NCBI GenBank assembly: GCA_963665815.1
Contig: OY762463.1
Span: forward strand, 1,216,001 to 1,280,000
DNA length: 64,000 bases
Reading direction: 5' to 3'
Source of the DNA: Candidatus Cloacimonadales bacterium
GTDB taxonomy: Bacteria; Cloacimonadota; Cloacimonadia; Cloacimonadales; JAIOQZ01
Position 1 is the stretch's first letter. Each line of letters opens with the position of its first letter. Both the position numbers and the translations under genes were made by a program. Shown here piece after piece: positions 10,470 through 62,037 of the stretch. Below the pieces are notes generated by a model. The model searched no databases. It saw only the letters and a list, made by a program, of their open reading frames with translations, and was not told where the DNA came from.

Positions 10470-10510
10470 ACTGATGAGGAATTTTACCGATAATAAGGTA
10501 AGGAGTTAAT

Positions 10511-10822
10511 ATGTCTGACCCAAGAATTACAGCTATTCAGCAAATGAATCAATTGAAAGACATTGCGAAAAGTAAAGATAGCATACAGCAGAAAAAACCC
10601 GAAGTATCCTTTAAGGATATGATGAAGCAATATCTTAATGAAGCTAATGAACAGCAGCTTGAAGCAGATGAAAACATACAGAAGATAATTGCAGGTGAAG
10701 ATGTTGATCCTCATGACGTAATGATTGCTGCTGAAAAAGCAAACCTCAGTTTTGATTTAATTATGGAAATCAGAAACAAGATGCTGGAAGCATACAAAGA
10801 AGTTATCAAATCACCTGTTTAA
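10511..10822 (+). CDS. fliE: Flagellar hook-basal body protein FliE
   Basis: SFKDMM, HDVMIAAEKANLSFDLIMEIRNKMLEAYKEV. Confidence 0.93.
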   Translation: MSDPRITAIQQMNQLKDIAKSKDSIQQKKPEVSFKDMMKQYLNEANEQQLEADENIQKIIAGEDVDPHDVMIAAEKANLSFDLIMEIRNKMLEAYKEVIKSPV

Positions 10823-10870
10823 TAAACATAAATGATTTACTTAATTTTCCGGTAATCTGAGAAAGAGAAT

Positions 10871-12463
10871 ATGCAGGATTTTATACAAGACTTTCGAGCA
10901 AAAATTGCTGAGATTTACGGCAGACTTGAGACCAGACAAAAAATTGTCCTTGGTGTACTGTTAATCGCCAGTTTCGCAGTTTTTATCTGGCTTATAAGCT
11001 GGAGTACAAAAGAAGAATATTCCCTTCTTTTTGGTAATATGGACCCTAAAGAAGCGAATGAAGCAATTAAGAAATTAGACGAACTGAATATTAAATACAA
11101 ACTGAGCAATGCTGGAAAATCAATACTGATACCTAAAGAGCTTGTATACTCAACCAGAATAAAACTCAGTTCGGAAGGAATTGCCAGCCAGACCGGAGTT
11201 GGATTCGAGATATTCGATAAACCTAATCTTGGAACAACAGAAGCTGTTCAGAAGCTTAACAGACAAAGAGCTCTTGAAGGTGAACTCCAGAGAACAATCA
11301 TGGCGATTGACGGAGTTGAATTTGTAAGAGTACACCTGCAGCTTCCGGAAGAAAAACTGTTTCAGGAAGATCAACAGGAGCCATCCGCTTCTGTTTTGAT
11401 TCAATCTAAAGGCAAACTTAATCAGAGACAGGTAGAGGGTATTACAAACCTTATAGCTTCTGCTGTGGAAGGTCTTGAAGTATCAGCTATTACAGTTACA
11501 GACAGAAATGGGAACATCCTCACAGAAAACTATGATGATTCTGTTTCAGGGTTATCCAGTTATCAGCTTAAACTCCAGAGACAGGTTGAAACAGATCTTA
11601 AGCATAAAGTTCAAACTATGATGGATAAACTCGTTGAACCTGGTAACTCAGAAATTAGAGTTTCTGCCGAATTGAACTTTGACAAAATAGAATCAACCAT
11701 GGAGAAATATGATCCGGACAGTAAAGTCACCAGATCTGAAGAAATCGAGAATGTTACTTCTGAAATGGCAGCAGACAGTATTTCCGAATCATCCGAACAT
11801 TTAATAACAAACTATGAAATCAACAGGACTGTTCAACATGTATTCAATTCTGTTGGAAATATAAAAAGACTTTCAGTCTCAGTTACAGTTAATCACAGAA
11901 TCGATTATAAAATTGTCGATGGTAAAGAGGTAAAAGAATATACTGAAAGAACAACTGAAGACCTTGAACAGATTGAATCTCTCGTAAGAACTGCTGTAGG
12001 ATTCTCAGCAGAACGAGGAGATGCAATTGTAGTAAACTCCCGTAGATTCGAAACAGCAAATTATGATAAGTGGAAAAGAGAGCAAAGCCAGGTTGAGACA
12101 AGAGGTGTAATGATGAAGATGGTTGAAACAGGAGTCATTCTTCTCATACTTGTGATACTTATTTTCACTCTTATCAGTCAGTTCAGAAAAGTATTCGCAC
12201 AACCTGCCGAAGCAGAAGAAAGCTCACTTCGACCAGTACTTGCACATGGAGATATTGATCAGGAAGGTTTCTATCCAGAAGGTGAAGAAGGCCTTCCAAT
12301 GGGCGAAGGTAAAATTTCATATACATTCAAGCCTATGAAAGACATTGAAATTGAACAGACAGAAACAATGGCTCTTCAAGAAGCAGTAAAAACCTTTATT
12401 CTGGAAAATCCGGAGACTGCAGTTAAACTGATTAAGAGCTGGATACTGGAAAGGAAATTTTAG
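10871..12463 (+). CDS. fliF: Flagellar MS-ring protein FliF
   Basis: Two TM helices, GFEIFD, RALEGELQRTI, ASAVEGL, IKRLSVSV, RGDAI, C-terminal NPETAVKLIKSW. Confidence 0.95.
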   Translation: MQDFIQDFRAKIAEIYGRLETRQKIVLGVLLIASFAVFIWLISWSTKEEYSLLFGNMDPKEANEAIKKLDELNIKYKLSNAGKSILIPKELVYSTRIKLSSEGIASQTGVGFEIFDKPNLGTTEAVQKLNRQRALEGELQRTIMAIDGVEFVRVHLQLPEEKLFQEDQQEPSASVLIQSKGKLNQRQVEGITNLIASAVEGLEVSAITVTDRNGNILTENYDDSVSGLSSYQLKLQRQVETDLKHKVQTMMDKLVEPGNSEIRVSAELNFDKIESTMEKYDPDSKVTRSEEIENVTSEMAADSISESSEHLITNYEINRTVQHVFNSVGNIKRLSVSVTVNHRIDYKIVDGKEVKEYTERTTEDLEQIESLVRTAVGFSAERGDAIVVNSRRFETANYDKWKREQSQVETRGVMMKMVETGVILLILVILIFTLISQFRKVFAQPAEAEESSLRPVLAHGDIDQEGFYPEGEEGLPMGEGKISYTFKPMKDIEIEQTETMALQEAVKTFILENPETAVKLIKSWILERKF

Positions 12464-12475
12464 ATTACCAATAAT

Positions 12476-13144
12476 ATGAGTAACTTTACATTAAAATCAC
12501 CTGTGCCTATTCGCAAAGCTGCACTCAGTTATGAAAATGGAGATAATCAGGATAAGAAAATCATGAATAACGATATACTAGATCATCTTCTGGAACAAAG
12601 AGAAAGAAAACTGAGACAGCAATACGAGTCCATACTGAAGCAGGAAACTGATAAAGCTTATCATAGAGGTTTCAATGATGGTAAGGATCAATCTCAAATT
12701 GTTTTGAATCAACAACTTCAACCCATACAAGACTTCGCAGCAAGAATTACTGAACAATTCAGGAATGAACTTGATTCCTTTTATGAAAAAGAGGAACAGC
12801 AAATTCTGGAGCTTATTCTGCATATTGCCCGTAAAGTTATACATACTGAAGTTTCATTAAATCCGGAAATTGTTCTGCATATTTTAAGATCAAGTCTTAA
12901 ACTGCTAAGCGACAGAAGAAACATTGTTATAAATGTGAATTCTGCTGAATGGTCAATTATAAAAGAAAACATGGAATCACTGGGACATGAATTTGATATT
13001 CCCGCTGATACTGAGATCAGAGGTACACAACACCTTGAAAAAGGAAGTGTCAGGATTGATACTGAATCAGGAACAATTGATTCCCGGATTTCTACTCAAA
13101 TTGACGAAATAACCAGAAAAATTCTGAAAGAATATAAAATCTGA
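12476..13144 (+). CDS. fliH: Flagellar export protein FliH/SctL
   Basis: AYHRGFNDG, IARKVIHTE, GSVRIDTESGTIDSRI; lies just before fliI. Confidence 0.85.
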   Translation: MSNFTLKSPVPIRKAALSYENGDNQDKKIMNNDILDHLLEQRERKLRQQYESILKQETDKAYHRGFNDGKDQSQIVLNQQLQPIQDFAARITEQFRNELDSFYEKEEQQILELILHIARKVIHTEVSLNPEIVLHILRSSLKLLSDRRNIVINVNSAEWSIIKENMESLGHEFDIPADTEIRGTQHLEKGSVRIDTESGTIDSRISTQIDEITRKILKEYKI

Positions 13145-13145
13145 A

Positions 13146-14459
13146 ATGTCTGTCCCAATTAACTTCTCAAAATATCATCAAATAATAGATAATGTGAATC
13201 CAATTAAGCAAAACGGTACTGTTTCACAAATTATCGGACTGATAGTAGAATCAATCGGACCTGCCGCCTCAATAGGAGATATCTGCTATATACACTCCAA
13301 TGATGGCAGAAAGCACATGACAGAGGTTGTAGGTTTCAAGAAAAACAAGACCTTGCTGATGCCCCTCAAAGAGCTATATGGTATTGCTCCCGGAAATCAG
13401 GTATCAACATTCAGAGAACCGTTTTCTGTTGCTACAGGGGATGAGCTTCTTGGAAGAGTGATCGATGGCCTGGGAAACCCTATAGACAGTGGTCCGGAAC
13501 TTAAACTGAAAGAACGTCGTTCCGTTTTCAGTCCTCCACCGAATCCACTTACAAGACAAAGGATAACTGAACCGCTTCAGCTCGGCATAAGATCAATTGA
13601 CGCATTGTTGACATGTGGAAAAGGTCAGAGAACAGGTATTTTTGCCGGCTCGGGTGTTGGTAAATCTGTTCTTCTCGGCATGATTGCCCGTAACACAAAA
13701 GCAGATATCAATGTTATTGCTCTGATTGGTGAGCGGGGACGTGAAGTAAGAGACTTTATTGAAAGCGATCTTGGAGAAGAAGGACTTAAACGATCAGTTG
13801 TTATTGTTGCAACATCAGATCAGGCTGCTCTTACAAGAGTCAAGGGAGCATTAGTAGCTACGACAATAGCCGAGTATTTCAGAGATAAAGGACTGAATGT
13901 TCTACTGATGATGGACTCCGTTACACGATATGCCATGGCACTAAGAGAAATAGGACTGGCAGTCGGTGAACCTCCAACAACAAAAGGATATACTCCATCT
14001 GTGTTTGCAAATCTCCCAAAACTGCTTGAGCGAGCTGGTACATCCGCAACAGGGACAATAACAGGGCTTTATACTGTGCTGGTAGAAGGTGGAGACATGG
14101 ATGAACCGATTGCCGATGCAGTACGTTCCATCCTTGACGGGCACATTCTGTTATCTCGTAAACTGGCATCAAAAGGACATTATCCGGCTGTAGAAATACT
14201 TGGATCAATATCTCGTGTGATGAATAGTGTCATTGAAAACGAACAGAAAACTGCAGCCCAGAAAATTATTGAGATAATGGCAACATATAAAGAAGCTGAA
14301 GATATCATCAATATTGGAGCATATTCATCAGGTTCCAACCCTAATATTGATTATGCTATTTCAAAAATAGAAAAAGTTAATAGATTTCTTAAGCAGCAGA
14401 TTGAAGAGAAGTCAGATTTTCAGACAACTCTTGATCAGCTAAAAGCAATAATAAAATAA
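13146..14459 (+). CDS. fliI: Flagellar export ATPase FliI
   Basis: FAGSGVGKS, IGERGREV, MDSVTRYAMA, GEPPTTKGYTPS, ILDGHI. Confidence 0.95.
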   Translation: MSVPINFSKYHQIIDNVNPIKQNGTVSQIIGLIVESIGPAASIGDICYIHSNDGRKHMTEVVGFKKNKTLLMPLKELYGIAPGNQVSTFREPFSVATGDELLGRVIDGLGNPIDSGPELKLKERRSVFSPPPNPLTRQRITEPLQLGIRSIDALLTCGKGQRTGIFAGSGVGKSVLLGMIARNTKADINVIALIGERGREVRDFIESDLGEEGLKRSVVIVATSDQAALTRVKGALVATTIAEYFRDKGLNVLLMMDSVTRYAMALREIGLAVGEPPTTKGYTPSVFANLPKLLERAGTSATGTITGLYTVLVEGGDMDEPIADAVRSILDGHILLSRKLASKGHYPAVEILGSISRVMNSVIENEQKTAAQKIIEIMATYKEAEDIINIGAYSSGSNPNIDYAISKIEKVNRFLKQQIEEKSDFQTTLDQLKAIIK

Positions 14460-14477: not shown

Positions 14478-15905
14478 ATGAAAAAATTCTTTATACTATT
14501 ACTACTCTTATATTTAACCATGCAATCATTTGCGTTGAACAACAATATTGCTAATCAATTTATCCAGAATTTAATTGATAACAAAAATAATTCAAAGTAT
14601 ATCGACAAATCTGTTCTTGAAAAGAGTTCTCGTCTTGGTATAAGATACCGGGATAACCCTAACAAATGCCTTATAGGTTATGATATTGAACCTGATGTTA
14701 AGGAACAACTCAAGAGAAAGAAACTCAACTACTCATACTGCATTACGGATATAGATTCTATTCATTCAAAACTTAACCTGACAATAACGGGAATAGATGC
14801 TGTTAAAACTTTTTACTTCAGAAATAATAAGTTTATATTCCCGCAGATGTATATTGCTCAAGAATGGACGAATCAAACTTCAGAGTATTTTAAGTTCAGT
14901 ATATATGAGCCTGAATATTTTAATGCTTATTCAAGAGCCAAACTGGATGAATTCGTAAACAGTCTGATTGAGATTTTCGATGTAGACTCGATAAAAGTCA
15001 ATAAATTGAAAGAGGAAAAAATAGATTACATCCTCTGTAGGGACAGTGATCAGATAGAAAAAATCACAGGGTATCCGGCAAGAGGTCAGTTTCTTATAGC
15101 TTCCGATGCCATAATTACCAGTTATAACTGTCACTACCATGAAATAGTACATTTCTTCATCAATTATGTGCTTGAGGAAAACAACCTGTATACTAATCCA
15201 TTCATTCTTGAAGGTCTTGCAGTAGCTCTGGGTGGAAGAGGAGGAAAAATCCCTGATGTTATTCTGGACATGGGCTATTACTTACAGAAGAAAGGGTTTT
15301 TGAACTATAAAGAAATTCAAACATTTAAGGGATTCTATGACAATAATGCATCTCTTTCATATCCTTTAGCCGGGCTGTATGTTAAATTCCTGCTGGAGCA
15401 CTTATCATTAGATGACTTTTTGAAACTATACAGAACCTCAGGGGCATCTCGATATAACTTAACAAAGTTGAATGTGAAACTGTTACCTGATGAAGCAGAA
15501 TGGACAGATTTCCTCGGTAAATACACTCAATACAGTAAAATTGAGCCTCATGATCCTGAAAACAATATCAAATCAAGTAAAACAGATACACTGATAATTA
15601 CAGATAATCAGGATTATTACTATTTCTGGGCTAAAAACAGCATAAACCTTTTTGGAGAATCTACAGGTAATGCAAAGAGTCGTTTGATAGATCAGGATTT
15701 TCCTGATCAAATCTATAATGGAGAAAATTACCTGCTGAAGATATTTGACAGTGAAATAAGTATTTATGATCTAAACACAAACAATCTGATAGCAAACTAT
15801 GTGAACAGCTTTGACACAACAGCAAAAGCAGTGTTCAATATTAATGGCTGGTACACATTCAAAGTTAAAAAATCCGTTCTCTCCAATATTAAACTCAATC
15901 AATAA
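14478..15905 (+). CDS. Secreted protein with a gluzincin-type metallopeptidase motif
   Basis: Signal peptide; HEIVH followed by EGLA. Confidence 0.6.
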   Translation: MKKFFILLLLLYLTMQSFALNNNIANQFIQNLIDNKNNSKYIDKSVLEKSSRLGIRYRDNPNKCLIGYDIEPDVKEQLKRKKLNYSYCITDIDSIHSKLNLTITGIDAVKTFYFRNNKFIFPQMYIAQEWTNQTSEYFKFSIYEPEYFNAYSRAKLDEFVNSLIEIFDVDSIKVNKLKEEKIDYILCRDSDQIEKITGYPARGQFLIASDAIITSYNCHYHEIVHFFINYVLEENNLYTNPFILEGLAVALGGRGGKIPDVILDMGYYLQKKGFLNYKEIQTFKGFYDNNASLSYPLAGLYVKFLLEHLSLDDFLKLYRTSGASRYNLTKLNVKLLPDEAEWTDFLGKYTQYSKIEPHDPENNIKSSKTDTLIITDNQDYYYFWAKNSINLFGESTGNAKSRLIDQDFPDQIYNGENYLLKIFDSEISIYDLNTNNLIANYVNSFDTTAKAVFNINGWYTFKVKKSVLSNIKLNQ

Positions 15906-49542: not shown

Positions 49543-49570
49543 TTGACAATATAAAGTATTAAATTATTAT
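49543..49570 (+). promoter_or_regulatory. Possible sigma70 promoter of the 49698-57032 operon
   Basis: TTGACA-16 nt-TATTAT, but the context is very AT-rich. Confidence 0.35.
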
Positions 49571-49697
49571 CTTAATATATTTTGTATAGATTTGTAATTA
49601 TTTGTCTTTAATAATATTGGCATTATATTTTTTTTGTCGTATAATATAATTAGTAATAATAAAGTGTTTCTAAAATCACATTTTCTGGGAGCAATAG

Positions 49698-52600
49698 ATG
49701 AAATATTTATCAATATTTACTTTGATTCTACTCTGTGCATCTTTTCTGAACTCTGCACCTCTCGAGATATTTGATTGTAATCCCGATACAACAGGAGTTG
49801 AAAATGTATCAACATTATCAAACATTACATTTCATATCAGGGATACAGATCCAAATGGTGGAGTAAATGAAAACTCCATAATAGTGCAAATTCAGGATGA
49901 GATTTATTCTCATACAAGTGCAAACAGCCAATACATCCACTTCATTCCTGTGAACGATCTGGAGTATTATATCGTTATTGACCCTGCAACAAACTTTGCA
50001 TATGGAGATACAGTAAGTGTATCTATTGATGCTTCAGATGTAAATGGTGTTCTGATGCCAACATTTGAATACAGCTACAGATGTATTGTCGATAACCTTC
50101 CACCATACTCTATCGCCAGTAATCCTACTGCAAGGCAACTGCAAGTACCTGTGGACACACCTATTCAGTTTCGTGTCAGAGATATGGAGATGGGGGTTGA
50201 TATTTCAACCGTAACTGCTACAGTAAGGTATCAGAATAACTCTGTTACTTATGGCAGTAATGATACTCAGAACTTTCAGTTCTCGGGAACTCTGGATAAC
50301 TTCCTCTGCCAAGTCAATATGCCGGATGCTTTTGATTTTGGTGATTCAGTTAATGTTGTAATTAATGCGGAAGACCTTGCTGGCAATCAAATGATTCCTT
50401 ATACATACTGGTTTATCTGTTTTATTGATAACGTCCCACCTTATACTGGGGAATACACTCCGGATATTAATTCAATTGACAATCCGGTAAATACAAATGT
50501 TTCATTTAATGTTTATGATCAACATTCAGGAATTGATTTAAATGAACTAAGAATTAAAATTAATGATAACTACTATACACATGTCAGTACTTCTGTAAGT
50601 GTCAATCCTTTGATTGGAGATAATGGCTATCAGGTTATTATCAATCCTATCAATAGCTTTGCCTTTAATGATCTGATTGATGTTACAATCTGGGCTAAAG
50701 ATACTCATGGCAATGAAATGGACTCTGTAGCCTATCAATTTCAGACAATAGCAGACGACACTCCACCTTATACAGGAGACTGGATTCCGGGCAATAACGC
50801 TCAAAACGTACCTTTGAGCACAAACATTCAATTCAACGTTTATGACCTTATTGCAGGCGTCAATCCGAACTCAGTTGTTGTAACAGTTAATAATGACACA
50901 ACTTATACTGTTACAAGCACAGGTGTAAGCTATGTCCAGATTCCAAACGGATATCGATTTACGATAAACCCAACAGTAAACTTTGATTATAACGAGCTTG
51001 TACAAATTGAAATTCAGGCAACGGATAATAACAATAACGTTATGATTCCTTATGATTATTCATTCAGAACAATTCCTGATTCCAATGATCCTCCTATCTT
51101 ACAGCTTCCTGACACATTCTTTGTTAATGAAGATGACAGTCTGGTTGTTGATTTCGATGTTTATACACATGACCCTGATGGGGATGCTCTTGTTATAACA
51201 GTTAACCAGACACCTGTTCATCCAAATATTAATGTCACAATTAATAATAATATGGTAACGTTCAAACCATCCTTCATGAACTGGATTGGTACTGAAAACG
51301 TTGGTTTTACAATTAATGATGGACGAGACAATACAACTGGAACTGTCAGTATTACTGTGCTTCCGGTTAATGACAGACCAGTCATAGTTCTTCCTGATGA
51401 ATTTGTGTTTAATGAAAATGATAATTATCAGATAAACTTCGCTCAATATATTCAAGATGTTGATAACAGCATTGGAGACTTTCAGTTGAACGCCAGCGGA
51501 AACTCAGATATTCATGTATCAATATCTAATACTGTTGTTACATTCTCTGCTGATCCTTACTGGTTTGGTCAGGAAGCGATCACTTTCACTGTATTTGACG
51601 ATGATACAAGGCTTAGTTCATCAGATACAGTACTTGTTAGAGTTGTAAATATTGTTGAAGAGCCTATGATTGATGGACCTTCAAGTATTACCCTTACAGA
51701 AGATACAGCTCAGACATTTGATTTTTCCTATTACATTACAAATAATGATAATATCCCTATAACCCTGACCCAGTCAAACGCTAATGAATTTACTGTAGAT
51801 GTTTCAATAAACGGATATCAGGTTACATTCACTCCGGCTGCCGATTATCAGGGAACAAGAACAATAAGATTTAACTTACTGGACAGCAACAGCAACATAC
51901 TTGATTATGATGATATTGATATTATCGTTACACCTGTTAATGATCCTGTAAGACTTAATCCTGCTTTCCAGAGCTATTTTGAGTTTACTCAAGGATCATC
52001 TCTGAATCTTGATTTCAGTAATCTTATTATGAATCCTGATGAGATTCCATATGAAATGGAACTCTCTGTTGCAGGAAACGAAAACATCATTGTTAATATC
52101 GACAGTCTTATGGTGAATATTTCTGCATCTGAAACTTGGTCTGGTCAGGAAAGGCTTACATTTACAATAGTCGGTGACGAAATAAACGGTACTGATCACT
52201 GGGAATTCGATAAAGAAATTGATATCAAAGTTATCACAACAGTTCAAATAAATCCGTCTTTCAATGATTACTTCACATTCACAGAAGGAACCACCTTCAG
52301 AACAAGTTTTGCCGGCATGGTTACAAATGCTGAGAACTATGCTCTGGAACTCACCTATACGGGAAATTCCTTTATTCAAGTTGATATTGATAGTCTGGAT
52401 GTTTCTTTCTCAGCCCCGGATAAATGGGTTGGAGAAGAGGATATCACATTCAAAATTGCAGGTACTGACCTGAACAGCAGAGCAGACTGGGAATTTGAAA
52501 AAGTAATAAGAATTACTGTTGAACCTGCAGCTGAGAATCTTGGTGAAAAAGTTGAACTACAATACAGGTCAATAACAAGAAATAATGGAAATCAATCCGA

Positions 52601-52826
52601 TATTTACATATATACAGAAGTTGACATTTCGAAGATAAAAGGTAAAATTCTTTCCAGAAGAGGAAAAGTCATTAAAGATTTGAACATTCAAACCCTTGGT
52701 GACAGAAAAGTAACAAACTGGAATACTACAGATAATGATAATAATCTTGTTGATGGTGGTTTCTATATCTACCAGTTCAAAATTGACGACAAGATTTATC
52801 AGGGTAGTATAATTGTAGTAAGGTAA
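49698..52826 (+). CDS. Large secreted repeat protein (4 SbsA/Big_5-like Ig repeats, about 5 cadherin/tandem-95-like repeats) with a type-B-like T9SS CTD
   Basis: Signal peptide; repeats DxxPPY...I.F.V.D...GV; NDPP/NDRP/NDPV repeats; C-terminus ITRNNGNQSD...ILSRRGKVI...WNTTD...GGFYIYQ...GSIIVVR. Confidence 0.75.
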   Translation: MKYLSIFTLILLCASFLNSAPLEIFDCNPDTTGVENVSTLSNITFHIRDTDPNGGVNENSIIVQIQDEIYSHTSANSQYIHFIPVNDLEYYIVIDPATNFAYGDTVSVSIDASDVNGVLMPTFEYSYRCIVDNLPPYSIASNPTARQLQVPVDTPIQFRVRDMEMGVDISTVTATVRYQNNSVTYGSNDTQNFQFSGTLDNFLCQVNMPDAFDFGDSVNVVINAEDLAGNQMIPYTYWFICFIDNVPPYTGEYTPDINSIDNPVNTNVSFNVYDQHSGIDLNELRIKINDNYYTHVSTSVSVNPLIGDNGYQVIINPINSFAFNDLIDVTIWAKDTHGNEMDSVAYQFQTIADDTPPYTGDWIPGNNAQNVPLSTNIQFNVYDLIAGVNPNSVVVTVNNDTTYTVTSTGVSYVQIPNGYRFTINPTVNFDYNELVQIEIQATDNNNNVMIPYDYSFRTIPDSNDPPILQLPDTFFVNEDDSLVVDFDVYTHDPDGDALVITVNQTPVHPNINVTINNNMVTFKPSFMNWIGTENVGFTINDGRDNTTGTVSITVLPVNDRPVIVLPDEFVFNENDNYQINFAQYIQDVDNSIGDFQLNASGNSDIHVSISNTVVTFSADPYWFGQEAITFTVFDDDTRLSSSDTVLVRVVNIVEEPMIDGPSSITLTEDTAQTFDFSYYITNNDNIPITLTQSNANEFTVDVSINGYQVTFTPAADYQGTRTIRFNLLDSNSNILDYDDIDIIVTPVNDPVRLNPAFQSYFEFTQGSSLNLDFSNLIMNPDEIPYEMELSVAGNENIIVNIDSLMVNISASETWSGQERLTFTIVGDEINGTDHWEFDKEIDIKVITTVQINPSFNDYFTFTEGTTFRTSFAGMVTNAENYALELTYTGNSFIQVDIDSLDVSFSAPDKWVGEEDITFKIAGTDLNSRADWEFEKVIRITVEPAAENLGEKVELQYRSITRNNGNQSDIYIYTEVDISKIKGKILSRRGKVIKDLNIQTLGDRKVTNWNTTDNDNNLVDGGFYIYQFKIDDKIYQGSIIVVR

Positions 52827-52830: not shown

Positions 52831-54291
52831 ATGAACATGAAAAATATACTCGTTTTAATACTACTTGTTTCCCTTTCACTTTTGTTCTCTCATGAATTCG
52901 GAGAGCACGGAGGAGTTCGTAATGCAGCAATGGGCGAAACCGGAATTTCTAACAGTACTGACGTTTCAGGTGCTCAATGGAATCCTGCATTAATCAGCAG
53001 CCTGAAACACTATCAGTTTGTCACTGACTTAAGACAATCCTCAGTCCAGTTAGATAATGATGATATTTACCATAACTTCCTTTTCCTCGGAATTCCTGTT
53101 GAGAATATTGGTACTTTCTCTGTCAGTGGAGGTCTTTTCAATTCTGATGAGTATGAGAATGCCGAATTAAGTTTGAATTACGGAAGAAGCCTTGGAGATA
53201 AATGGGCAGTTGGATTAACTGTTGTAAATTACTATGTAAACTACTCAGGAATATCTGAAACATCATCCGCTCTTGATCTTGGTCTGGGTGCACTTTATCA
53301 TCCTACCGAATATTTCACACTTGGTTTATCAACCAGAAATTTGCTTAGACCGGATGTTGCCGTAGACTCACGTAATGAAGACAAATTGCCTATGCTTGCT
53401 GGTTTAGGAGCAACTTTCCATGCTAACAATCTGATAATCACAACTGATTTTGAATATCAGGACATGCTGAATACAGATGATGAAATCAGGCTTGGACTTG
53501 GTGCGGAATACTCCATATATGATAACCTCGCAATTCGAACAGGTTTCAACAATAACTTCTTTACAGCCGGTTTCGGAGTAAAGATGTATACAAAAAACTG
53601 GTTTGCCAATCCTGACAGGACTAACGACCTGTATAACGTAAATACAGCTTCAATATCTCTTGATTATTCTGCAAGGTTCCCCATTTTCTTTAGTGGTGGA
53701 AATGACCTTATAAGCTTTGAAAATGAAGCTGAAACAGAATATGGAGATCACTTTATTGGGATTACGGTTGACTTTGGTACAGACACAGTTAACAAAGATC
53801 AGCTTGCATATTACTTCCCTGAAAAGTATGGAAGAAGATTCGGTGTTGCAGATACTGTTTTCATCGAAAAAGTTGTTAAAGACACAATCTATCAGGACAG
53901 AACAATAATTGATACTGTTGCTGTTTATGAAAAAATTGTGGATCAGGAGCTTTTACAGGAAAGACTGGAAGAACAACTTGAGATTGTAAAAGTAAAAGAA
54001 TATGACAGTATTAACAGAGCATCTGTTGATCACCTTGTTAATGCTTTACGTTACTACTACAATGCTGAATACAAGAAATCAATTGCAGAATGTGAAAAAT
54101 CAATTGATATCGCTCCTAGATTGTCATTGTCATACATTATTCTCGGATCCATATACTATAAAATGGGAGATAGTGAACTTGCATTTGACTACTGGGAAAA
54201 AGCAAAGAAAGTATATTCGAAAAATGAAGAATTAAATAAAGTTTTAGAAAACATTTATAATGGAATTGAAGATTTCATTCCACAATATTAG
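52831..54291 (+). CDS. PorV/PorP-SprF-like outer-membrane beta-barrel with C-terminal coiled coil and TPR
   Basis: Signal peptide, GVRNAAMG..D...WNPA, LDLGLG, RNLLRPD, LGAEY..LAIRTG; C-terminal TPR pair. Confidence 0.7.
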   Translation: MNMKNILVLILLVSLSLLFSHEFGEHGGVRNAAMGETGISNSTDVSGAQWNPALISSLKHYQFVTDLRQSSVQLDNDDIYHNFLFLGIPVENIGTFSVSGGLFNSDEYENAELSLNYGRSLGDKWAVGLTVVNYYVNYSGISETSSALDLGLGALYHPTEYFTLGLSTRNLLRPDVAVDSRNEDKLPMLAGLGATFHANNLIITTDFEYQDMLNTDDEIRLGLGAEYSIYDNLAIRTGFNNNFFTAGFGVKMYTKNWFANPDRTNDLYNVNTASISLDYSARFPIFFSGGNDLISFENEAETEYGDHFIGITVDFGTDTVNKDQLAYYFPEKYGRRFGVADTVFIEKVVKDTIYQDRTIIDTVAVYEKIVDQELLQERLEEQLEIVKVKEYDSINRASVDHLVNALRYYYNAEYKKSIAECEKSIDIAPRLSLSYIILGSIYYKMGDSELAFDYWEKAKKVYSKNEELNKVLENIYNGIEDFIPQY

Positions 54292-54305: not shown

Positions 54306-55691
54306 ATGAAAAGATCATTCATCATCGTTATGTTTTTGTTTTCCTTCGTTGTTCTGCTAGCCCAGAATTACGATACGGTATATCAGATTGATGCTGAAAA
54401 AAGCCTGGCAGAGCGTATCGAAAAGGTTATTGAACCGATTGCCGGTAAAACAGTCGTAATTGTTGATCTTGAATTAAGATATCCGCCAGAGGGACTTGTA
54501 CCGTTCGGAATGGAACTCGATAAAAAATCTAGTCTTCCGGGAATTCCCGTTGCAAAATCCAAGGGTGTTTTAACTCCAAACATTGCAGATCAACCTACAT
54601 TTCCTACGATTGTAACCAAAAAGAAGATCATAATTTATGCAGACCAGAATCTTTCAGCAGACAGGGAAGCATATATTGCAGAAAATGTTGCCAAATGGTT
54701 TGCTCTTAATCTTCTTGAAAACGATGTTTTAGAGATTCGAAAAGAGTTAGATCTTACAGGTAGCTCAAAAGGGAACTTTTTTACTTCCCCTATCTTCTAT
54801 TTCATTATATTCCTGCTATTGTTGATAGTCTTCTTTGTTATTGCCCTGTTCCATGTAAACAGAATGGCAGAATCAATGAGACATGTTAATATTACAGGTA
54901 TCGACAGTCTTATCAGAATTATGAGTTCAATGCAGACAAAATTTGAGACAATGAGTAACGCTGTTTCAGGACTGGACTATTCTTCCAAGGAACCATTACC
55001 TATACAGGTTATGGAAAAACGTGAAGATGTATACGACGAATCTATGGACTTCCACTTCATTGAAAAACTTTCAATGCCGGAATTTGTCCATCTTATAAAA
55101 GATGAAACTGCAGACAGTGCAGCATTTATCTTGTCTAATCTTTCTACGAATTTTGCCAGAAACTTCTTCCAGGAATACCTTGGCAATTCTGCTGAGATAA
55201 TCAAACACATGACAACCTCAGTAAAACAATCCAAGAAAGATGTTCAGGAACTGAGAGCTAAACTCTATGACCGATTCAAACTTATTGTTGAAGAAAGTCA
55301 GGTTAGATTTGAAGGAGCATCAACTCTTATCAAGGTTACTAATTCACTTCCTACCGGATACAGTTCAGACTTCTATAAACTCATCCAGAAAGCTGATGGA
55401 AAAGCAGCATCTGACATCAGAGATAAAGTGTTCCTGCTTGAAGATGTTGAAAAACTGGATGATAATGTAATTGATCAGATAATTAAGCAATCAGATCATA
55501 ACCTGTTAGTCAAATTCCTTCTCAGTGTAGATGAAAGTCTTCTTCAAAAATTCTTCCAGAATATGTCTGAAAGAAATATCCTGATTGTCAAAGAGGATAT
55601 GGAAGTACTTGGACCTCTATCTTCCGATGACAAAGAAAAGACTAAGAACAGCATGTTAGCAATGATCAGATCAATGCTCAAATACAAATAA
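54306..55691 (+). CDS. Chimeric rotor-like protein: signal peptide, FliF-RBM3-like domain, one TM helix, FliG middle and C-terminal domains
   Basis: FliG-C: AASDIRDKVFLLEDVEKLDD..KFFQNMSER..KEDMEVLGPL. FliG-M: FHFIEKL..LIKDETADSAAFILSNL. N-terminal part resembles RBM3 of the FliF in this window. Confidence 0.75.
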   Translation: MKRSFIIVMFLFSFVVLLAQNYDTVYQIDAEKSLAERIEKVIEPIAGKTVVIVDLELRYPPEGLVPFGMELDKKSSLPGIPVAKSKGVLTPNIADQPTFPTIVTKKKIIIYADQNLSADREAYIAENVAKWFALNLLENDVLEIRKELDLTGSSKGNFFTSPIFYFIIFLLLLIVFFVIALFHVNRMAESMRHVNITGIDSLIRIMSSMQTKFETMSNAVSGLDYSSKEPLPIQVMEKREDVYDESMDFHFIEKLSMPEFVHLIKDETADSAAFILSNLSTNFARNFFQEYLGNSAEIIKHMTTSVKQSKKDVQELRAKLYDRFKLIVEESQVRFEGASTLIKVTNSLPTGYSSDFYKLIQKADGKAASDIRDKVFLLEDVEKLDDNVIDQIIKQSDHNLLVKFLLSVDESLLQKFFQNMSERNILIVKEDMEVLGPLSSDDKEKTKNSMLAMIRSMLKYK

Positions 55692-55701: not shown

Positions 55702-56439
55702 ATGAAGATTAGCACAATATTAGGTATCATAATCGGGTTTGGAATAATCTTATATGCAGTATATCTTGAAGACGCAATCCAGTATTTTCTGAATCCTCAG
55801 GCAATATTGATTGTTGGCGTTGGAACATTTGCAGCTGTACTGATTTCATTTTCCTCAAGTGCAATCATAGATGCAATCTTTGCATTCTTCGCTATTTTTA
55901 CAAGCTCAGGACTTTCACCCAAAAAAGTCATTGAGATTATTGTGAATCTCGGAAAAGAAGCAAGAACAAACAGCTATGAAAGCCTTTTACTCAGTAGACA
56001 TGTCAAGAATCTTGGAATGCTTGAAAGAGGAATAAGATTACTAAATGAAGATGTTACATCTGATAAAATTGAAACTATCCTCACCAGAGAAAGTAAAGCA
56101 CTATCAGACAGAAACAGAACGGCTGAAAGAGTCTTCAGACTTGCCAGTACATTCTCACCACTATTTGGTATGATCGGAACTGTTATCGGGATGGTTATAA
56201 TGATTAATAAATCATCCAATCCGGATGATCTTCCCAAAGCAATGGGAATAGCTCTGTTATCCACTCTTTACGGACTTATCCTGTCTGGTCTTGTTTTCAA
56301 ACCTATTGCAAGTAAGATTAGAGATAATAACCATACTAATAACAAAGTTAACGACATTATCATCGAAGGTGTTCTGTCAATTCAGAATGGCGAGAATTCT
56401 CAGCTTACAAAAGAAAAACTTGAAACATATTTACATTAG
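55702..56439 (+). CDS. motA: Stator protein MotA/PomA family
   Basis: Four TM helices, AILIVGVGT, EAR, SPLFGMIGTVIG, ALLSTLYG, PIASKI, EGVLSIQNGEN. Confidence 0.88.
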   Translation: MKISTILGIIIGFGIILYAVYLEDAIQYFLNPQAILIVGVGTFAAVLISFSSSAIIDAIFAFFAIFTSSGLSPKKVIEIIVNLGKEARTNSYESLLLSRHVKNLGMLERGIRLLNEDVTSDKIETILTRESKALSDRNRTAERVFRLASTFSPLFGMIGTVIGMVIMINKSSNPDDLPKAMGIALLSTLYGLILSGLVFKPIASKIRDNNHTNNKVNDIIIEGVLSIQNGENSQLTKEKLETYLH

Positions 56440-56447: not shown

Positions 56448-57032
56448 ATGAGTAATAAAGTAATAAATTTTAAGGGAATTAAAAGATTTACTCAGCAGGA
56501 TACGACTGATGAGGAAAATTGGGTTGATGTAATGGTTTCCTTTGCAAGCCTGATGCTGATTCTTGTTGTATTTTACATGTTCTTTCAATCATATCAAAAA
56601 TTATATGATGAGGGGAAAATTGAAAATGCTGTATATTCTCAAGATTCCACTCGATATGTTTTTACTTTGAAGAATGCCGAATATTTCAAGAGTTACAGCA
56701 GTTCTTTTACCGCAAATGCCGAAACAGATCTGATTCAACTTGGAAAGATGCTTAATTCAAAGATTGAAAATCAAAAAAGAAAATGGCAGATCAGAATTGA
56801 AGGACATACTGATGATATTCCGTTCAGTGACAGTAATTATTCTTCAAACCTGGATCTGAGTGCTGCAAGAGCATCGGCTATTGCGAATTTCTTTATTTCA
56901 AAAGGTTATTTTCATCCGGATCAGCTTCAAGTAGCAGGATATGGAGACTTAAAACCTATGGTACCAAATGTAAGTGATGAGAACAGAATATCAAATAGAA
57001 GAGTAAATATTATTTTGTATAAAGTACATTAA
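56448..57032 (+). CDS. motB: Short MotB-like stator protein with OmpA-type peptidoglycan-binding domain; canonical Asp absent
   Basis: TM WVDVMVSFASLMLILVVF; IEGHTDDIP, SNLDLSAARA, GYGDLKP, NRRVNI. Confidence 0.8.
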   Translation: MSNKVINFKGIKRFTQQDTTDEENWVDVMVSFASLMLILVVFYMFFQSYQKLYDEGKIENAVYSQDSTRYVFTLKNAEYFKSYSSSFTANAETDLIQLGKMLNSKIENQKRKWQIRIEGHTDDIPFSDSNYSSNLDLSAARASAIANFFISKGYFHPDQLQVAGYGDLKPMVPNVSDENRISNRRVNIILYKVH

Positions 57033-57052
57033 TATACAATCTTAAACATATG

Positions 57053-57085
57053 AGACCTGTTGTTTTACAATGGGTCTTTTTTTTT
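57053..57085 (+). terminator. Intrinsic terminator closing the 49698-57032 operon
   Basis: AGACCTGTTGT-ttt-ACAATGGGTCT followed by a T-run. Confidence 0.7.
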
Positions 57086-57306
57086 CAAAATCCCTTCATC
57101 CCTTTACTGATGTCCATTTTCACTATTAGATGATTAGTCTTCATTAAGAAAACAACCCGACTACTATACTTTCAAATAATACATATCAACAATTGAATAT
57201 TGATTATTGAAATTAATTGTTGACTTACTCTGTATATATATCAATATTATGAACACAGATATTTCATTATAATAGAAATATCAAAACACTAAACAAGGAG
57301 AAAAGT

Positions 57307-60300
57307 ATGCGAAGACAATTAATATTAGCTTTATTGCTTTTATTCGCAGTTTCCATTTTTGCACAGACCTCAGGAGGTCCTGACGCTTACGGATACTCAT
57401 GGATTAACAGTAATGATGCTAATGGTCCTTCTTTCACCTGGATCACTCCGGATACAGTGAACGCAACACAAGTAACTACTTTCACGGACGATTCAATGGT
57501 AGGTCCATTCACAATTGGTTTTAACTTTCCATTTTACGATCAAACAAAGACAGACTTTTATTTAAGTTCAAACGGATTTATTTCCTTTACAGGAGACACA
57601 AACAGTCTCACAAACTACACAATCCCTACACCAGGCATCCCTAATGACTTTATTGCATGGTTCTGGGATGACATGGACCCTGTAAGCACTACAGCCCCAG
57701 CTAACAATGCTCGTGTTTATTACGAAAATATAACTTACAGTGGTACTAACGCGCTTCTAATCACATACCTGAATTATCATGAATACTCAGGAGAAGGAAC
57801 AGGATACGTTGATGCACAAGTTATCCTGAGAGACAATGGTCAAATCATCATGCAATACGATTCATTCAATGGTGGTATTGTTTTAAACGAAGCTACAATT
57901 GGCATCGAAAACTCTGATGGAACTATCGGTCTTGAATACTGCTTTGATGACTCAACATTAATTTCAAATCAACTTGCCATAAAATATTACACAATTGAAG
58001 ATGGCTATCCTGAATTTGCACAAAACCCTAATCCAGCCTCAGGATCAACAGGTATTCTCGTTAATGGAACATTAACATGGGATTTCGGTGCAGATACTGA
58101 TACTTATGATTTATGGTTCGGACCTGCAGGAAATATGACTCAGGTTGTAACCGGTGCCACAGCAGGAGCTACAGGCTCATACACATATAGTGGACTTAAT
58201 ACTCTTTCCAGCTACGAATGGAGAGTCGATACTCATAATACTGCTGTTAGACTTTCTACAATCGGAGCAGTATGGACTTTCGAAACTCAGTGTGGTACAA
58301 TTACTACATTCCCATGGAGTGAAGATTTTGAAGGAGCACAGCTTCCTTCATGCTGGGTAGAAGATATTAATAACATTACTCCATGGTCTTTTGGTACATC
58401 TACTCCATCCTCTCCTACCGGTCCTTCATCTGGAGACCATACAAGTGGTTCAGGATATTTCATGTATACAGAAGCATCTGGAAGCCTCAATCAAGTTTTC
58501 AAAGTGACATCCCCAATATTTGATGCATCTGCTTTAACATCACCAGTTCTTGAATTCTGGTATCATATGTACGGGCAATCAATGGGAACTCTTCAAGTTA
58601 ACATTTTAGAACCGGCTACCGCTACATTACACTCAGATGTTATTACTCCTGTATCAGGAGATCAGGGAGATGTATGGAACAACGCAAGTGTAGATTTAAC
58701 ACCTTACACAGGTGAATTCCAGATTGAATTCATCGGAACAACAGGAGATGACTACTACAGTGACATCTGTATTGATGATGTAGGTATTTATGATAATGTT
58801 ACAACACCTGCATGTAACGCACTGAATACACCGGCTGATATGGCTATTGACATTATTGAAGCTGGAACACTGACTTGGAGTGGATCACAAGGTGCAACAG
58901 GCTATAAAGTTTCTCTTGGTACAGATAACCCTCCAACAAACATCGAAGATGGTCTTGATGTTGGAGCAGCTTTTTCTTATGACTTCTCAGGATTAACTTT
59001 CGGAACAACTTACTACTGGATGGTAACTCCTTACAATACAAACGGTGAATCTACAGGATGTCCTGTAAGATCATTCACTGTAAGAGCTGATCCAACCATA
59101 TCTACTTTCCCATGGACTGAAGATTTCAGCGTATGGCCACTACAAGACTGGGTTTTTGCAGGATCAAGACTGTGGGCAGAAGATTCAGGATCAGGATCTG
59201 CTTACTGTAATTTCTGGGGTTGGAGCGATGGTGAAGCTCATATGGTTACTCCTCCAATAGCCCTCCCTGCTACAGGTTCTTACAGCTTTGGTTTCAACTG
59301 GTCTCACTTATACAGCACTACATATCCTACAGACTCAGCGGCAGTATTAGTTTCTACTGATGGAGTTAACTGGAACATGGAATGGACTCTTGGTGGAACT
59401 AACTTCGATTCAAACGATGGAGCTGCGAACACTGCTCCAGGTACATTTACTTATGCTGAATTCAATCTTGACAGTTATCTTGGACAAACGATATACATTG
59501 ATGTAGTAGGTTACACAGGCTATGGTCCTAACTTCTACGTTGATAATGCTACTGTTTTCAGCGTTTCAACACCTCCTGGATGCTCAACAGCTGATACTCC
59601 TGCTGATGGTGCTAATGAAATTATCGAAATGGGCACACTCAGATGGAATACTACTGGAGGAACAACCGGTTATAAACTCTTCTTTGGGTCAGATAACCCA
59701 CCTACAAACATTGAAAATGGAACAGATCTTGGTAACGTGCAAACTTACGACTTCTCAGGACTTGCATTCAATACTACTTACTACTGGACTGTAGTACCTT
59801 ATAACACTAATGGTGATGCTACAGGATGCCCTGTATGGTCATTCACAACAAGACCTGATCCAACAGTTACTAACTTCCCATGGACAGAAGATTTCTCATC
59901 ATTCCCACTTGAGCCACGTGGCTGGAGCTATGGTGGTACTCAGCAATGGGCTGAAGATGCAGGTTCAGGAAGTATATTCGCAAACTTCTGGAGCTGGAGC
60001 ACTGGTAATGCTGAATTATACTCACCACCAATCGCATTAACAGGAAACGCAGACCTTCTTTTCAAATGGTCACACACATTCAATACTTCATATCCGGATG
60101 ATGCTTTTGAAGTGTCAGTATCAACAGATCAATCAAACTGGACTGTTGTATGGTCAATTCAGGATTCTCTGTTTGAATCTAATGATGGTGCTCAAAGTAC
60201 AGCTCCTGGTACTTTTGTTCAGGAAACCGTAAATATTGATGCATATAGTGGTCAGACAATCTATCTTAAGTTTGATGGTATTTCAGGATACGGTCCTAAC

Positions 60301-62037
60301 CTATACCTTGATGATGTTGGAGTTAATATTACAACACCACCAGACGATGATCTTACAGTTATTACAGTTATTGGTAACACAACTCCAATGGTTGGATCAC
60401 CTTCAGATTATACAATTTCCGTAAGAAATAATGGTCTTAACACACAATCAACTTATGATGTAAAACTTATGCTTGCTCCTGATACCGAACTCGGAACTAT
60501 TGCAGGTACTACAATTGCACATGATCAGATTAATGATTATGTTATCACCTGGATTCCTCAAGCAGGAATGGAAGGAAATCAGAATATCTTCGGTAAAGTT
60601 GTTCTTGCCGGTGACGAAGGTCCTGGTAATGATGCTTCTGCACCACTTCCAGTCAACGTTCAAGCATCACAAACAGGTATTCAGGGCTATGTACGTGACA
60701 TTAACGGCAACCCACTGTTTAACGCTCAAGTACTGATTGAAGAACTCCAGTCTGTTCAATATACAGGTAATAATGGATTCTATCAATTCCTTAATGTTCC
60801 TGTTGAAACATATACAGTAACTGCAAGTTTGACAAATTATGATAACAATACACAAACTAATGTCGTAGTAACTCAGGACAACCTTACTGACGTAAACTTC
60901 ACAATGACTCAGGGTGCAATCCTCATGGGTACTGTTTACGATCATGCTAATGTTGAAGTTGCCGGAGCTCTTGTTGAAATCGAACAACTTGCTATTACAA
61001 CAACAACAGATGCACAAGGTAACTACACATTTGTACAGGTTACACCGGGAACATATACTGTTAATGCAACTAAAGATGGTTATATTGATCAAACTGAATC
61101 TAACGTAGTTATAGCTGCGGATGCAACTGTTGATCTTGATATTATTCTTAACGAATATGGTCATTTCACAGTTAATATAACAACAAACCTCAGTTCACCA
61201 ACCGGTGCAATTGTTGAACTTACTGACGGAACAAACACATATACTGAAACATCAGATGATACCGGTGTTGTTCTTCTCAACGAGGTTCTTCCGGGAACAT
61301 ACAATCTTACAGCTTCACTTCCGGACTGTAACATTCACGAACAACAGAATATTGTTATTGTAAATGGTGACAATACTCCTGTTGATGTTACTCTTGATGA
61401 AATCCTTATTGCTCCAACAAACATTCAATGGCTTAACAATGATCGTATTCTTGTTTGGCAGCATGGTGACAGAATTTATGGAACCAGAGCAGATGGTGAA
61501 ACAGCACTTGTTGAAGGATCATCTTATGTTGAAAGAGATTCTGATAATGAAGAAGACGAACGTGCATTCATGTATTTCAGAGTTGAAATTGATATTATTA
61601 ATCAAACAACATCAGATACATTCTTCACAGTGACAGGATTTAACATTGGAGAACAACTTACTGCTACAATCACAGCAGTATATGAAACAGGTACCGCAGC
61701 AGCTCCAGATTTTGATTTCACATTTGAAGAAGTTGCAAACGATCCTGATGATGTAAATCTTGTTACAGAACTTAAAGGTAACTATCCTAACCCATTCAAT
61801 CCTACTACACACATTGAATTCTCACTTAAGAAAGCCGGAAACGTAGAACTTGCTATCTACAATATCAACGGACAGAAAGTAAGAACACTTGTAAGTGAAG
61901 AAATGGAAGCAGATAACCATAAGGTTACCTGGAATGGTAAAGATGACAGAGGAAACTCAGTTTCAAGTGGAACATATTTCTACAGACTGCAAACCTCTGA
62001 AACAACACAAACTAAGAAAATGCTGATGCTGAAGTAA
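57307..62037 (+). CDS. Large secreted multidomain protein (nidogen-like, Fn3, MAM, 2x Fn3+jelly-roll, CARDB-like, 3x carboxypeptidase-regulatory-like) with type-A/FlgD-Ig CTD
   Basis: Signal peptide; GGPDAYGY, IAWFWDD; MAM TGPSSGDHTSGSGYFMYTEAS..FWYHMYG; C-terminal NYPNPFNP..IYNINGQKV..WNGKD..SSGTYFY..TKKMLMLK. Confidence 0.85.
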   Translation: MRRQLILALLLLFAVSIFAQTSGGPDAYGYSWINSNDANGPSFTWITPDTVNATQVTTFTDDSMVGPFTIGFNFPFYDQTKTDFYLSSNGFISFTGDTNSLTNYTIPTPGIPNDFIAWFWDDMDPVSTTAPANNARVYYENITYSGTNALLITYLNYHEYSGEGTGYVDAQVILRDNGQIIMQYDSFNGGIVLNEATIGIENSDGTIGLEYCFDDSTLISNQLAIKYYTIEDGYPEFAQNPNPASGSTGILVNGTLTWDFGADTDTYDLWFGPAGNMTQVVTGATAGATGSYTYSGLNTLSSYEWRVDTHNTAVRLSTIGAVWTFETQCGTITTFPWSEDFEGAQLPSCWVEDINNITPWSFGTSTPSSPTGPSSGDHTSGSGYFMYTEASGSLNQVFKVTSPIFDASALTSPVLEFWYHMYGQSMGTLQVNILEPATATLHSDVITPVSGDQGDVWNNASVDLTPYTGEFQIEFIGTTGDDYYSDICIDDVGIYDNVTTPACNALNTPADMAIDIIEAGTLTWSGSQGATGYKVSLGTDNPPTNIEDGLDVGAAFSYDFSGLTFGTTYYWMVTPYNTNGESTGCPVRSFTVRADPTISTFPWTEDFSVWPLQDWVFAGSRLWAEDSGSGSAYCNFWGWSDGEAHMVTPPIALPATGSYSFGFNWSHLYSTTYPTDSAAVLVSTDGVNWNMEWTLGGTNFDSNDGAANTAPGTFTYAEFNLDSYLGQTIYIDVVGYTGYGPNFYVDNATVFSVSTPPGCSTADTPADGANEIIEMGTLRWNTTGGTTGYKLFFGSDNPPTNIENGTDLGNVQTYDFSGLAFNTTYYWTVVPYNTNGDATGCPVWSFTTRPDPTVTNFPWTEDFSSFPLEPRGWSYGGTQQWAEDAGSGSIFANFWSWSTGNAELYSPPIALTGNADLLFKWSHTFNTSYPDDAFEVSVSTDQSNWTVVWSIQDSLFESNDGAQSTAPGTFVQETVNIDAYSGQTIYLKFDGISGYGPNLYLDDVGVNITTPPDDDLTVITVIGNTTPMVGSPSDYTISVRNNGLNTQSTYDVKLMLAPDTELGTIAGTTIAHDQINDYVITWIPQAGMEGNQNIFGKVVLAGDEGPGNDASAPLPVNVQASQTGIQGYVRDINGNPLFNAQVLIEELQSVQYTGNNGFYQFLNVPVETYTVTASLTNYDNNTQTNVVVTQDNLTDVNFTMTQGAILMGTVYDHANVEVAGALVEIEQLAITTTTDAQGNYTFVQVTPGTYTVNATKDGYIDQTESNVVIAADATVDLDIILNEYGHFTVNITTNLSSPTGAIVELTDGTNTYTETSDDTGVVLLNEVLPGTYNLTASLPDCNIHEQQNIVIVNGDNTPVDVTLDEILIAPTNIQWLNNDRILVWQHGDRIYGTRADGETALVEGSSYVERDSDNEEDERAFMYFRVEIDIINQTTSDTFFTVTGFNIGEQLTATITAVYETGTAAAPDFDFTFEEVANDPDDVNLVTELKGNYPNPFNPTTHIEFSLKKAGNVELAIYNINGQKVRTLVSEEMEADNHKVTWNGKDDRGNSVSSGTYFYRLQTSETTQTKKMLMLK
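58801..60336 (+). repeat. Tandem intragenic duplication of about 256 aa (Fn3 + jelly-roll module)
   Basis: TPAD..GTL.W..GYK..G.DNPPTNIE.G.D.G..YDFSGL..DPT..FPWTEDFS..SNDGA..TAPGTF..GYGPN occurs twice. Confidence 0.8.

Follow-up and report, generated by a model that had tools for sequence, protein, structure and literature searches.

Why should a bacterial genome encode the torque-receiving domains of a flagellar rotor in one chain with a ring-building motif, directly beside a stator and apart from its flagellar genes? The question is raised by a gene at positions 54306-55691 (+) of a 64,000-nucleotide stretch from a Candidatus Cloacimonadales bacterium (assembly GCA_963665815.1, contig OY762463.1, positions 1,216,001 to 1,280,000), here called the window. 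The open reading frame (ORF), whose coordinates agree exactly with those of an original prediction made from the letters alone, specifies 461 amino acids (aa) in four parts: a signal-peptide-like N-terminus, a periplasmic domain, one strong transmembrane (TM) helix, and the middle and C-terminal domains of FliG (FliG-M and FliG-C). The product, referred to below as the rotor-like protein, is probably a natural fusion of two flagellar rotor parts, in which the third ring-building motif (RBM3) of FliF, with a shortened collar insert, and the second membrane helix of FliF are joined to FliG-M and FliG-C; it would serve as the partner of its own stator and not as part of a flagellum.

Domain architecture of the rotor-like protein

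The FliG half (aa 247-461 plus the stop codon, 55044..55691; this and the other parts of the cassette and its flanks lie on the + strand) is recognized by family, sequence and structure searches alike, as the original prediction had proposed. Pfam FliG_C (PF01706) is matched over aa 360-457 at 68.8 bits (cut-off 23.3), and positions 97-320 of the TIGR00207 fliG model align with aa 234-457 at E 4e-24. Pfam FliG_M alone stays below its cut-off (13.5 vs 25 bits); the presence of the middle domain is seen in the continuous alignments with TIGR00207 97-320 and with residues 111-320 of Aquifex FliG. Sequence comparison with the PDB returns 11 chains, each of them FliG or a FliF-FliG fusion. A Foldseek search with the model of the whole protein returns FliG M+C structures as its 13 best matches, followed by FliF RBM3 entries, and superposition of Thermotoga maritima FliG-C on the model gives a TM-score of 0.85 and a root-mean-square deviation (rmsd) of 1.5 Å. 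No MgtE_N match appears at E<=1 in a Pfam/NCBIfam scan, and across the fold, profile and sequence searches this half matches FliG better than MgtE_N or other ARM-like folds.

Within this half, the EHPQ motif of FliG-M has been replaced: the rotor-like protein reads DETAD (K-D-E-T-A-D vs N-E-H-P-Q-T of Aquifex FliG). The EHPQ(R) motif is part of the FliM-binding surface of FliG. The torque helix reads GPLSSDDKEKTK, and an acidic pair 4-5 residues after 'GP' in this helix recurs across the rotor-like family.

The periplasmic domain (aa 20-160, 54363..54785) resembles FliF RBM3 in its structural model, by Foldseek, by a second structural aligner, and in PDB profile and hhalign comparisons. The model (mean predicted local distance difference test score, pLDDT, 76, and >87 in core elements) has the topology alpha(22-46)-beta(50-58)-insert 59-101-beta(102-113)-alpha(118-131)-beta(141-148). 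Its 43-aa insert occupies the site of the FliF beta-collar, between the first two strands, and holds an SLPGIP motif that is kept in the family and in distant relatives; an RBM3-like domain with a shorter insert containing SLPGIP is what the original prediction had described. In Foldseek, 17 of 17 matches at E<=0.001 are FliF RBM3/S-ring entries, with SpoIIIAG at rank 19 and PrgK at ranks 20-21. With an aligner independent of Foldseek, run against 48,161 PDB chains and with a background at about Z 7-8, the three highest scores (Z 12.4, 12.4 and 10.9) likewise belong to FliF RBM3. Superpositions of FliF RBM3 on the domain, within Salmonella residues 231..438, have rmsd values of 2.7-2.9 Å over 92-97 residues, the best Salmonella fit reaching Z 12.4 with 2.7 Å over 97 residues. 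Other RBM folds score lower (SpoIIIAG Z 9.8, PrgK 8.4, EscJ 8.3).

Profile comparisons lead to the same family. An alignment of 32 such N-terminal domains from genomes of the same phylum, searched against the whole PDB, finds only two sequences, both of them FliF (E 0.0062 and 0.36), at the start and end of RBM3. In the match to FliF the P-I-x-G motif is kept, and V41 and I45 of the rotor-like protein fall opposite Salmonella I252 and I256, which are reported to be subunit-interface residues of FliF (PMC11739650). By hhalign, the same 32-sequence profile matches residues 37-189 of protein P0140 (probability 95.9%, E 5e-9) and residues 35-197 of P0079 (92.4%, E 5e-7). The matching stretches of these two proteins pass Pfam YscJ_FliF_C (PF08345) at 36.1 and 34.8 bits, respectively (cut-off 23.8), and FliG_M and FliG_C come after them.

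The remaining parts of the chain also bear out the original prediction. Residues 1-19 (54306..54362) consist of MKR, 16 uncharged residues and then A|QN, a heuristic pattern from which cleavage is predicted; by the same heuristic reading, a short basic/hydrophobic/A-Q or S-Q pattern is common to 37 full-length relatives. A single TM helix at aa 163-181 (54792..54848) has a Kyte-Doolittle mean of 3.39, and the model is helical over 162-192. It is followed by a cytoplasmic linker (aa 184-246, 54855..55043) with pLDDT <50 over 183-246 and no family match, which stands in place of the FliF tail and FliG-N. FliG-N itself is missing, with no FliG_N match and a TIGR00207 alignment that begins at position 97 of 338; the whole-protein TIGR00207 score is 85.5 bits, under the equivalog cut-off of 226.7. 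RBM1 and RBM2 (PF01514, YscJ_FliF) are likewise not found in the rotor-like protein, in which only 19 residues lie between the signal-like segment and the RBM3-like domain; the true FliF of the window scores 202.6 bits with this model.

Distribution, gene order and stator

In a profile search of 232 genomes of the phylum, the full-length rotor-like protein occurs in 49 and a FliG-type match only in a further 20; FlhA occurs in 24. FlhA and the full-length rotor-like protein meet in only three genomes: this one, its congener G119, and G121. The other 46 of the 49 carriers lack FlhA and likewise have no FliG match of the canonical type. Nine carriers of family f6 that are 96-100% complete are among the genomes with neither. 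This distribution agrees with the proposal of the original prediction that the ring would house no type III export gate, as does the absence from the protein of RBM2, the motif reported to surround the gate in FliF (PMC11739650).

The gene order around the family is conserved. In the window, five closely packed genes, 4, 14, 10 and 8 bp apart, form a unit that encodes in order an Ig-like (immunoglobulin-like) surface protein, a PorV-like barrel with tetratricopeptide repeats (TPR), the rotor-like protein, a PomA-like MotA and a MotB. All five genes are under strong purifying selection, with ratios of nonsynonymous to synonymous substitution (dN/dS) of 0.028-0.042 between this genome and congener G119, values that are approximate because dS is ~1-2. 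Among 18 loci compared, 17 contain the family, and one of these (L047) has two modules, giving 18 modules. In all 18, motA directly follows the rotor-like gene, and a match to the MotB query follows motA in 17. The exception, L052 (G223:C22), encodes at 9579-10001 a 140-aa MotB-like protein after motA, with a PYADLM membrane segment, no OmpA region, and a short C-terminus that is LysM-like by eye. In none of the 17 loci does the rotor-like gene adjoin flagellar genes; it is always accompanied by motA and a motB-like gene, and mostly by envelope genes.

The upstream partners vary more. PorV-like/TPR and Ig-like genes lie directly upstream in nine of the 17 loci, close by on the other strand in four, and are absent from four. 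Three loci of the last group (L047, L048 and L050) have instead a gene for a 371-379-aa TPR protein with a signal-like N-terminus after motB, and in the fourth (L053) no TPR gene was identified. Since a TPR element is thus present in 16 of 17 loci, a periplasmic TPR appears to be a recurrent partner. At L047 (G144:C42, 8086-16572), the two complete modules stand in tandem, each with its own rotor-like gene, motA, motB and TPR gene. In addition, two genomes of the group with a FliG-type match only, G205 and G206, encode a 659-aa FliF_C-FliG fusion beside a TPR lipoprotein, MotA and MotB. The G205 locus (L054, G205:C1, 5471-10702) comprises this YscJ_FliF_C + FliG_M + FliG_C protein, a 394-aa protein matching no known family, the TPR lipoprotein, MotA and a plug-bearing MotB. 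The G205 genome, which is complete at only 1.6 Mb and comes from the same class, has neither FlhA nor SprA.

The stator genes resemble those of flagella. The 245-aa A subunit (55702..56439), a channel protein of the four-TM type with a large cytoplasmic loop, matches Pfam MotA_ExbB (PF01618) at 61.3 bits and the NCBIfam PomA/MotP models at ~152 bits, without reaching the equivalog cut-offs (152 vs 341). Vibrio PomA residues 1-242 align with it end to end (MotA 1-244, E 3e-33). The position of PomA R88 is Arg in this MotA and R/K/H across the family. The 194-aa B subunit (56448..57032) has one TM segment and an OmpA-like peptidoglycan-binding C-domain (PF00691, 60.4 bits), whose best PDB matches are the C-domains of MotB, MotS and PomB. 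The channel Asp of MotB (E. coli D32 position) is kept in 33 of 36 family MotBs within the pattern P-Y/F-x-D-L/M-M, and both relatives tested for Pfam MotB_plug, those of L047 and L043, pass it (33.6 and 29.2 bits, cut-off 24).

The closest named relative (51% identity) is labelled Candidatus Cloacimonetes. A wider search, among 1.84 billion representative proteins, gave 58 matches at E<=1e-30, about 40 of which align over most or all of the profile. Many longer relatives (430-800 residues) have the same domain order, often with C-terminal TPR; a few of these, assigned to Candidatus Omnitrophota, Candidatus Electryonea clarkiae and Candidatus Margulisiibacteriota, bear the name 'FliG C-terminal domain-containing protein', and others the name 'flagellar motor switch protein FliG'. 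Another protein from this search, P0072 (996 aa), is a single chain with FliM, five DUF4116 repeats, FliG_M and two FliG_C stretches. Relationships were examined with an unrooted FastTree tree of 145 FliG-MC domains, drawn from the best 150 matches of a family-built profile, a sampling biased to the family. Its 40 core-family rows form one clade with support 99, the longer fusions fall in several separate clades, and the FliG of this genome lies among canonical FliGs, a placement that rules out the rotor-like gene as a recent duplicate of it.

That canonical FliG is encoded about 1.9 Mb from the window, at C1:3189951, and scores 373 bits, above the cut-off. In the stretch C1:3189951-3191442 the gene is followed by a 174-aa open frame with similarity first to FliG_C (63.7 bits) and then to FliG_M (30.5 bits). 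The window itself holds a flagellar row at 9209-14459, 42 kb from the rotor-like gene, with flgB, flgC, a gap, fliF, fliH and fliI; fliG is absent from its usual place between fliF and fliH. Directly after fliI, in the place expected for fliJ, stands a 475-aa ORF (14478-15905, +) with no Pfam or NCBIfam match.

The rest of the neighbourhood concerns the envelope. Two promoter-like sites (49543..49645; consensus scan, 11/12 matches each, pattern only) precede the first gene of the unit, which encodes the 1042-aa Ig-like surface protein (49698..52826) with a signal-like N-terminus and Pfam Big_5, Big_9 and cadherin-like repeats; its C-terminal ~90 aa are conserved at related loci. The second gene (52831..54291) specifies a 486-aa PorV/PorQ-like outer-membrane beta-barrel (~aa 29-280) with C-terminal TPR (~aa 410-470). 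It scores 73.5 bits with NF033709 PorV_fam, under the cut-off of 90, and 22.3 bits with Pfam PorP_SprF, exactly the cut-off of 22.3; TPR_2 is also matched. A terminator-like hairpin, identified by pattern match only, with a 12-pair stem and a T run, lies 20 bp past motB (57052..57088). Beyond it, a 1576-aa surface protein (57307..62037) carries a type A sorting domain of the type IX secretion system (T9SS; TIGR04183, 40.8 bits, cut-off 23). A full-length homologue in that position occurs only at the same-genus locus L051, and the link of this protein to the cassette is uncertain.

The T9SS protein SprA is found in 48 of the 49 carriers, the exception being a 61% complete genome (G132). Of the 232 genomes of the phylum, 212 have SprA but only 49 the cassette, which is thereby ruled out as the general T9SS motor of the phylum. 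Models for GldM, GldL and GldN have no match in this genome, a negative that does not amount to absence, since the same models reached their cut-offs in no control genome and two of them matched nothing at all. Another MotA/ExbB-family gene (95.3 bits) occurs elsewhere in the genome, with a second PorV-like barrel (75.5 bits) at a distance of ~5 kb (C1:1903919-1909495).

Possible mechanism and competing explanations

A mechanism can be proposed from these parts. After removal of the signal peptide, neighbouring RBM3 domains would pack against one another in the periplasm and form a ring at the outer surface of the inner membrane, which would hold a matching ring of FliG-MC domains below the membrane. 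Peptidoglycan-anchored units of the MotA5B2 type might then push the FliG-C domains, so that the whole ring turns in the membrane. Because there is no rod, export gate or FliM/FliN, output would pass through the periplasmic face of the ring, conceivably to the TPR of the PorV-like outer-membrane barrel and from there to the Ig-like surface protein, with the outcome that a surface adhesin is moved, loaded or tensioned. Ring formation, rotation, the direction of energy flow and the outer-membrane output are all steps that we infer from the assembled parts. In its most far-reaching form, the proposal is of a stand-alone, ion-driven rotary motor that consists of the flagellar torque core only (RBM3 ring, FliG-MC and PomA-type stator), without axle, export apparatus or switch. 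Such a motor would pass rotation via the TPR/PorV-like barrel to giant adhesins and would be a third bacterial surface motor beside the flagellum and GldLM/T9SS, widespread in uncultured phyla, with Cloacimonadota here and relatives under names from Omnitrophota, Electryoneota and Margulisiibacteriota. We put this forward only tentatively, as an idea that is on balance unlikely.

Several observations weigh against the reading of the gene as a fusion of rotor parts that works with its own stator, some of them in the stator. The MotB encoded here reads SFASLM, with Ser in place of the channel Asp; the congener also has Ser (loci L010/L051 for this genus) and G121, from a sister genus, has Asn (L011). 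These three, this genome and its two closest carriers, are the carriers with flagellar genes and exactly those in which the Asp is replaced. Loss of the channel Asp in E. coli MotB abolishes stator function. Pfam MotB_plug is matched by neither the MotB of the window nor that of the congener. The missing channel Asp makes the suggestion of the original prediction that the ring receives torque weaker for this particular genome. Both this lineage and most of the family retain an Asp six residues upstream of the channel position, and the module in this genome may use that residue or may work without canonical ion flow.

The rotor-like protein itself provides further contrary points. PF08345 does not match the N-terminal domain of the window at E<=1 and matches only one of the 32 family domains, at E 0.025. 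The parallel that had been drawn with the RBM3 of the FliF encoded in the window is right in substance by fold and profile, but direct hhalign comparison of the N-domain profile with that single FliF sequence found nothing of the kind (probability 0.2%, to the RBM2 region). The insert is modelled at low confidence and measures 43 aa, compared with 111 aa given for the Salmonella beta-collar (PMC11739650). Predictions of a four-copy N-domain oligomer scored 0.36, 0.31 and 0.34, between the controls at 0.00-0.01 and the mark of 0.42, and speak neither for nor against a ring. The torque-helix charges of E. coli (R281 and D288/D289, numbered after PMC12505986) are not kept when compared with Salmonella and T. 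maritima FliG, the R281 position being Ser and 288/289 Thr/Lys, and the acidic positions E96/E97/E99 of PomA have no acidic counterpart in MotA. That both members of the E98-R281 pair are gone, one in MotA and one in FliG, would be in keeping with co-evolution of the two proteins. Lastly, it is by gene order that the rotor-like protein is linked to the PorV-like protein and the adhesin, and we infer a connection from it.

These points give most support to a non-rotary explanation, in which a single copy or small oligomer of the protein acts as an energy-transducing or anchoring module in the manner of TonB/TolA. MotA/MotB, in this genome perhaps ion-dead, would grip FliG-C, and the periplasmic RBM-like domain would hand on a conformational pull or a signal to the PorV-like/TPR protein, or the assembly would be a static tether of the adhesin. 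Loss of the MotB Asp under continued strong purifying selection fits a role without ion flow, and it is in this lineage that such a transducer or tether gains weight from the missing residue. The unconserved rotor-stator charge pairs point the same way, as does the occurrence of RBM folds in SpoIIIAG, SpoIIIAH, PrgK and EscJ (Z 7.6-9.8), which are not known to rotate. Yet the best fold matches are to FliF RBM3, at least 2.6 Z above other RBM proteins, with the insert at the collar position, and RBM3 alone is reported to build rings in Salmonella (PMC11739650). Moreover, 33 of 36 family MotBs keep the Asp, those tested pass MotB_plug, and the stator matches the flagellar PomA type from end to end. 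We consider the non-rotary explanation possible, though not probable.

A role as an accessory or alternative flagellar motor part in this flagellated genome, either as an extra ring or as a second rotor/stator set for certain conditions, fares considerably worse. It is suggested by flgB, flgC, fliF, fliH and fliI in the window, by FlhA and a canonical FliG in the genome, and by the missing fliG between fliF and fliH. Paralogous FliG proteins occur in spirochaetes. Nevertheless, FlhA and a canonical-type FliG are both missing from 46 of the 49 carriers, the rotor-like protein has neither the FliF-binding FliG-N nor EHPQ, the gene lies beside flagellar genes at none of 17 loci, and a full canonical FliG is encoded elsewhere in this genome, all of which makes a flagellar role quite improbable. 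That the gene is a decaying, functionless leftover of flagellar genes, as the lost MotB Asp of this lineage and the divergent FliG motifs might suggest, is extremely improbable given intact frames in 49 genomes of several families, a conserved gene order and dN/dS of ~0.03-0.04 for all five genes.

Significance and comparison with known systems

If the gene is indeed a natural fusion of FliF and FliG parts with a stator of its own, the conservation of this rotor-stator pair where flagellar export genes are lacking would mean that the torque-generating pair works in another machine. It would also provide structural and single-molecule studies with a rotor pared down to one protein, and a concrete object with which to ask about the origin of the flagellar motor and whether its rotor-stator core existed apart from type III export. 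In the far-reaching and on balance unlikely reading of a stand-alone motor, the protein could also be a surviving relative of a pre-flagellar rotor and not a derivative, because the FliG domains of the family are not nested inside canonical FliG in the unrooted tree. The present lineage constitutes a natural experiment, in which the cassette coexists with a true flagellum and stays constrained after loss of the MotB Asp. The FliG-MotA interface is usually taken to be restricted to flagella, and a recent stator survey places flagellar-type stators in a single flagellar clade, with FliG mentioned only as the flagellar partner (PMC12505986). In a literature search with most subscription journals outside its scope, the fusions of FliF and FliG that came up were all engineered and the FliG paralogues flagellar; a natural RBM3-FliG protein apart from flagella was not described.

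The closest known system is the flagellar FliF/FliG/MotAB-PomAB assembly, which shares the folds, their sequence along the chain and their topology (periplasmic RBM3, TM helix, cytoplasmic FliG-M and FliG-C) and has a PomA-like stator with a peptidoglycan-binding B subunit, encoded alongside here too. Unlike the flagellar rotor, the protein described here is one polypeptide, without RBM1, RBM2, the FliF tail or FliG-N, and has a signal-peptide-like N-terminus in place of TM1. Its insert is 43 rather than 111 aa, EHPQ is absent, no FliM/FliN, rod or export genes accompany it, and it occurs mostly in genomes without FlhA. The engineered FliF-FliG fusions of Salmonella and Vibrio, which are reported to assemble into rings (PMC6079021, PMC11481574, PMC10941966), are likewise single chains with FliF ring motifs and FliG. 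They join full-length FliF to FliG within a flagellar system, however, whereas the rotor-like protein is natural and non-flagellar and does without two thirds of FliF and the FliG N-domain.

More distant systems share one element or another. SpoIIIAG, PrgK and EscJ have the RBM fold in common with the rotor-like protein, and SpoIIIAG also has an insert in the motif, but all three score lower than FliF RBM3, and they are neither joined to FliG nor accompanied by MotAB. The T9SS/gliding motor (GldLM, PorV, adhesins) resembles the machine proposed here in being an ion-driven inner-membrane motor associated with a PorV-family barrel and a large surface protein; in contrast to its GldL and GldM, the motor parts encoded here are of the flagellar type, MotA/PomA and FliG.

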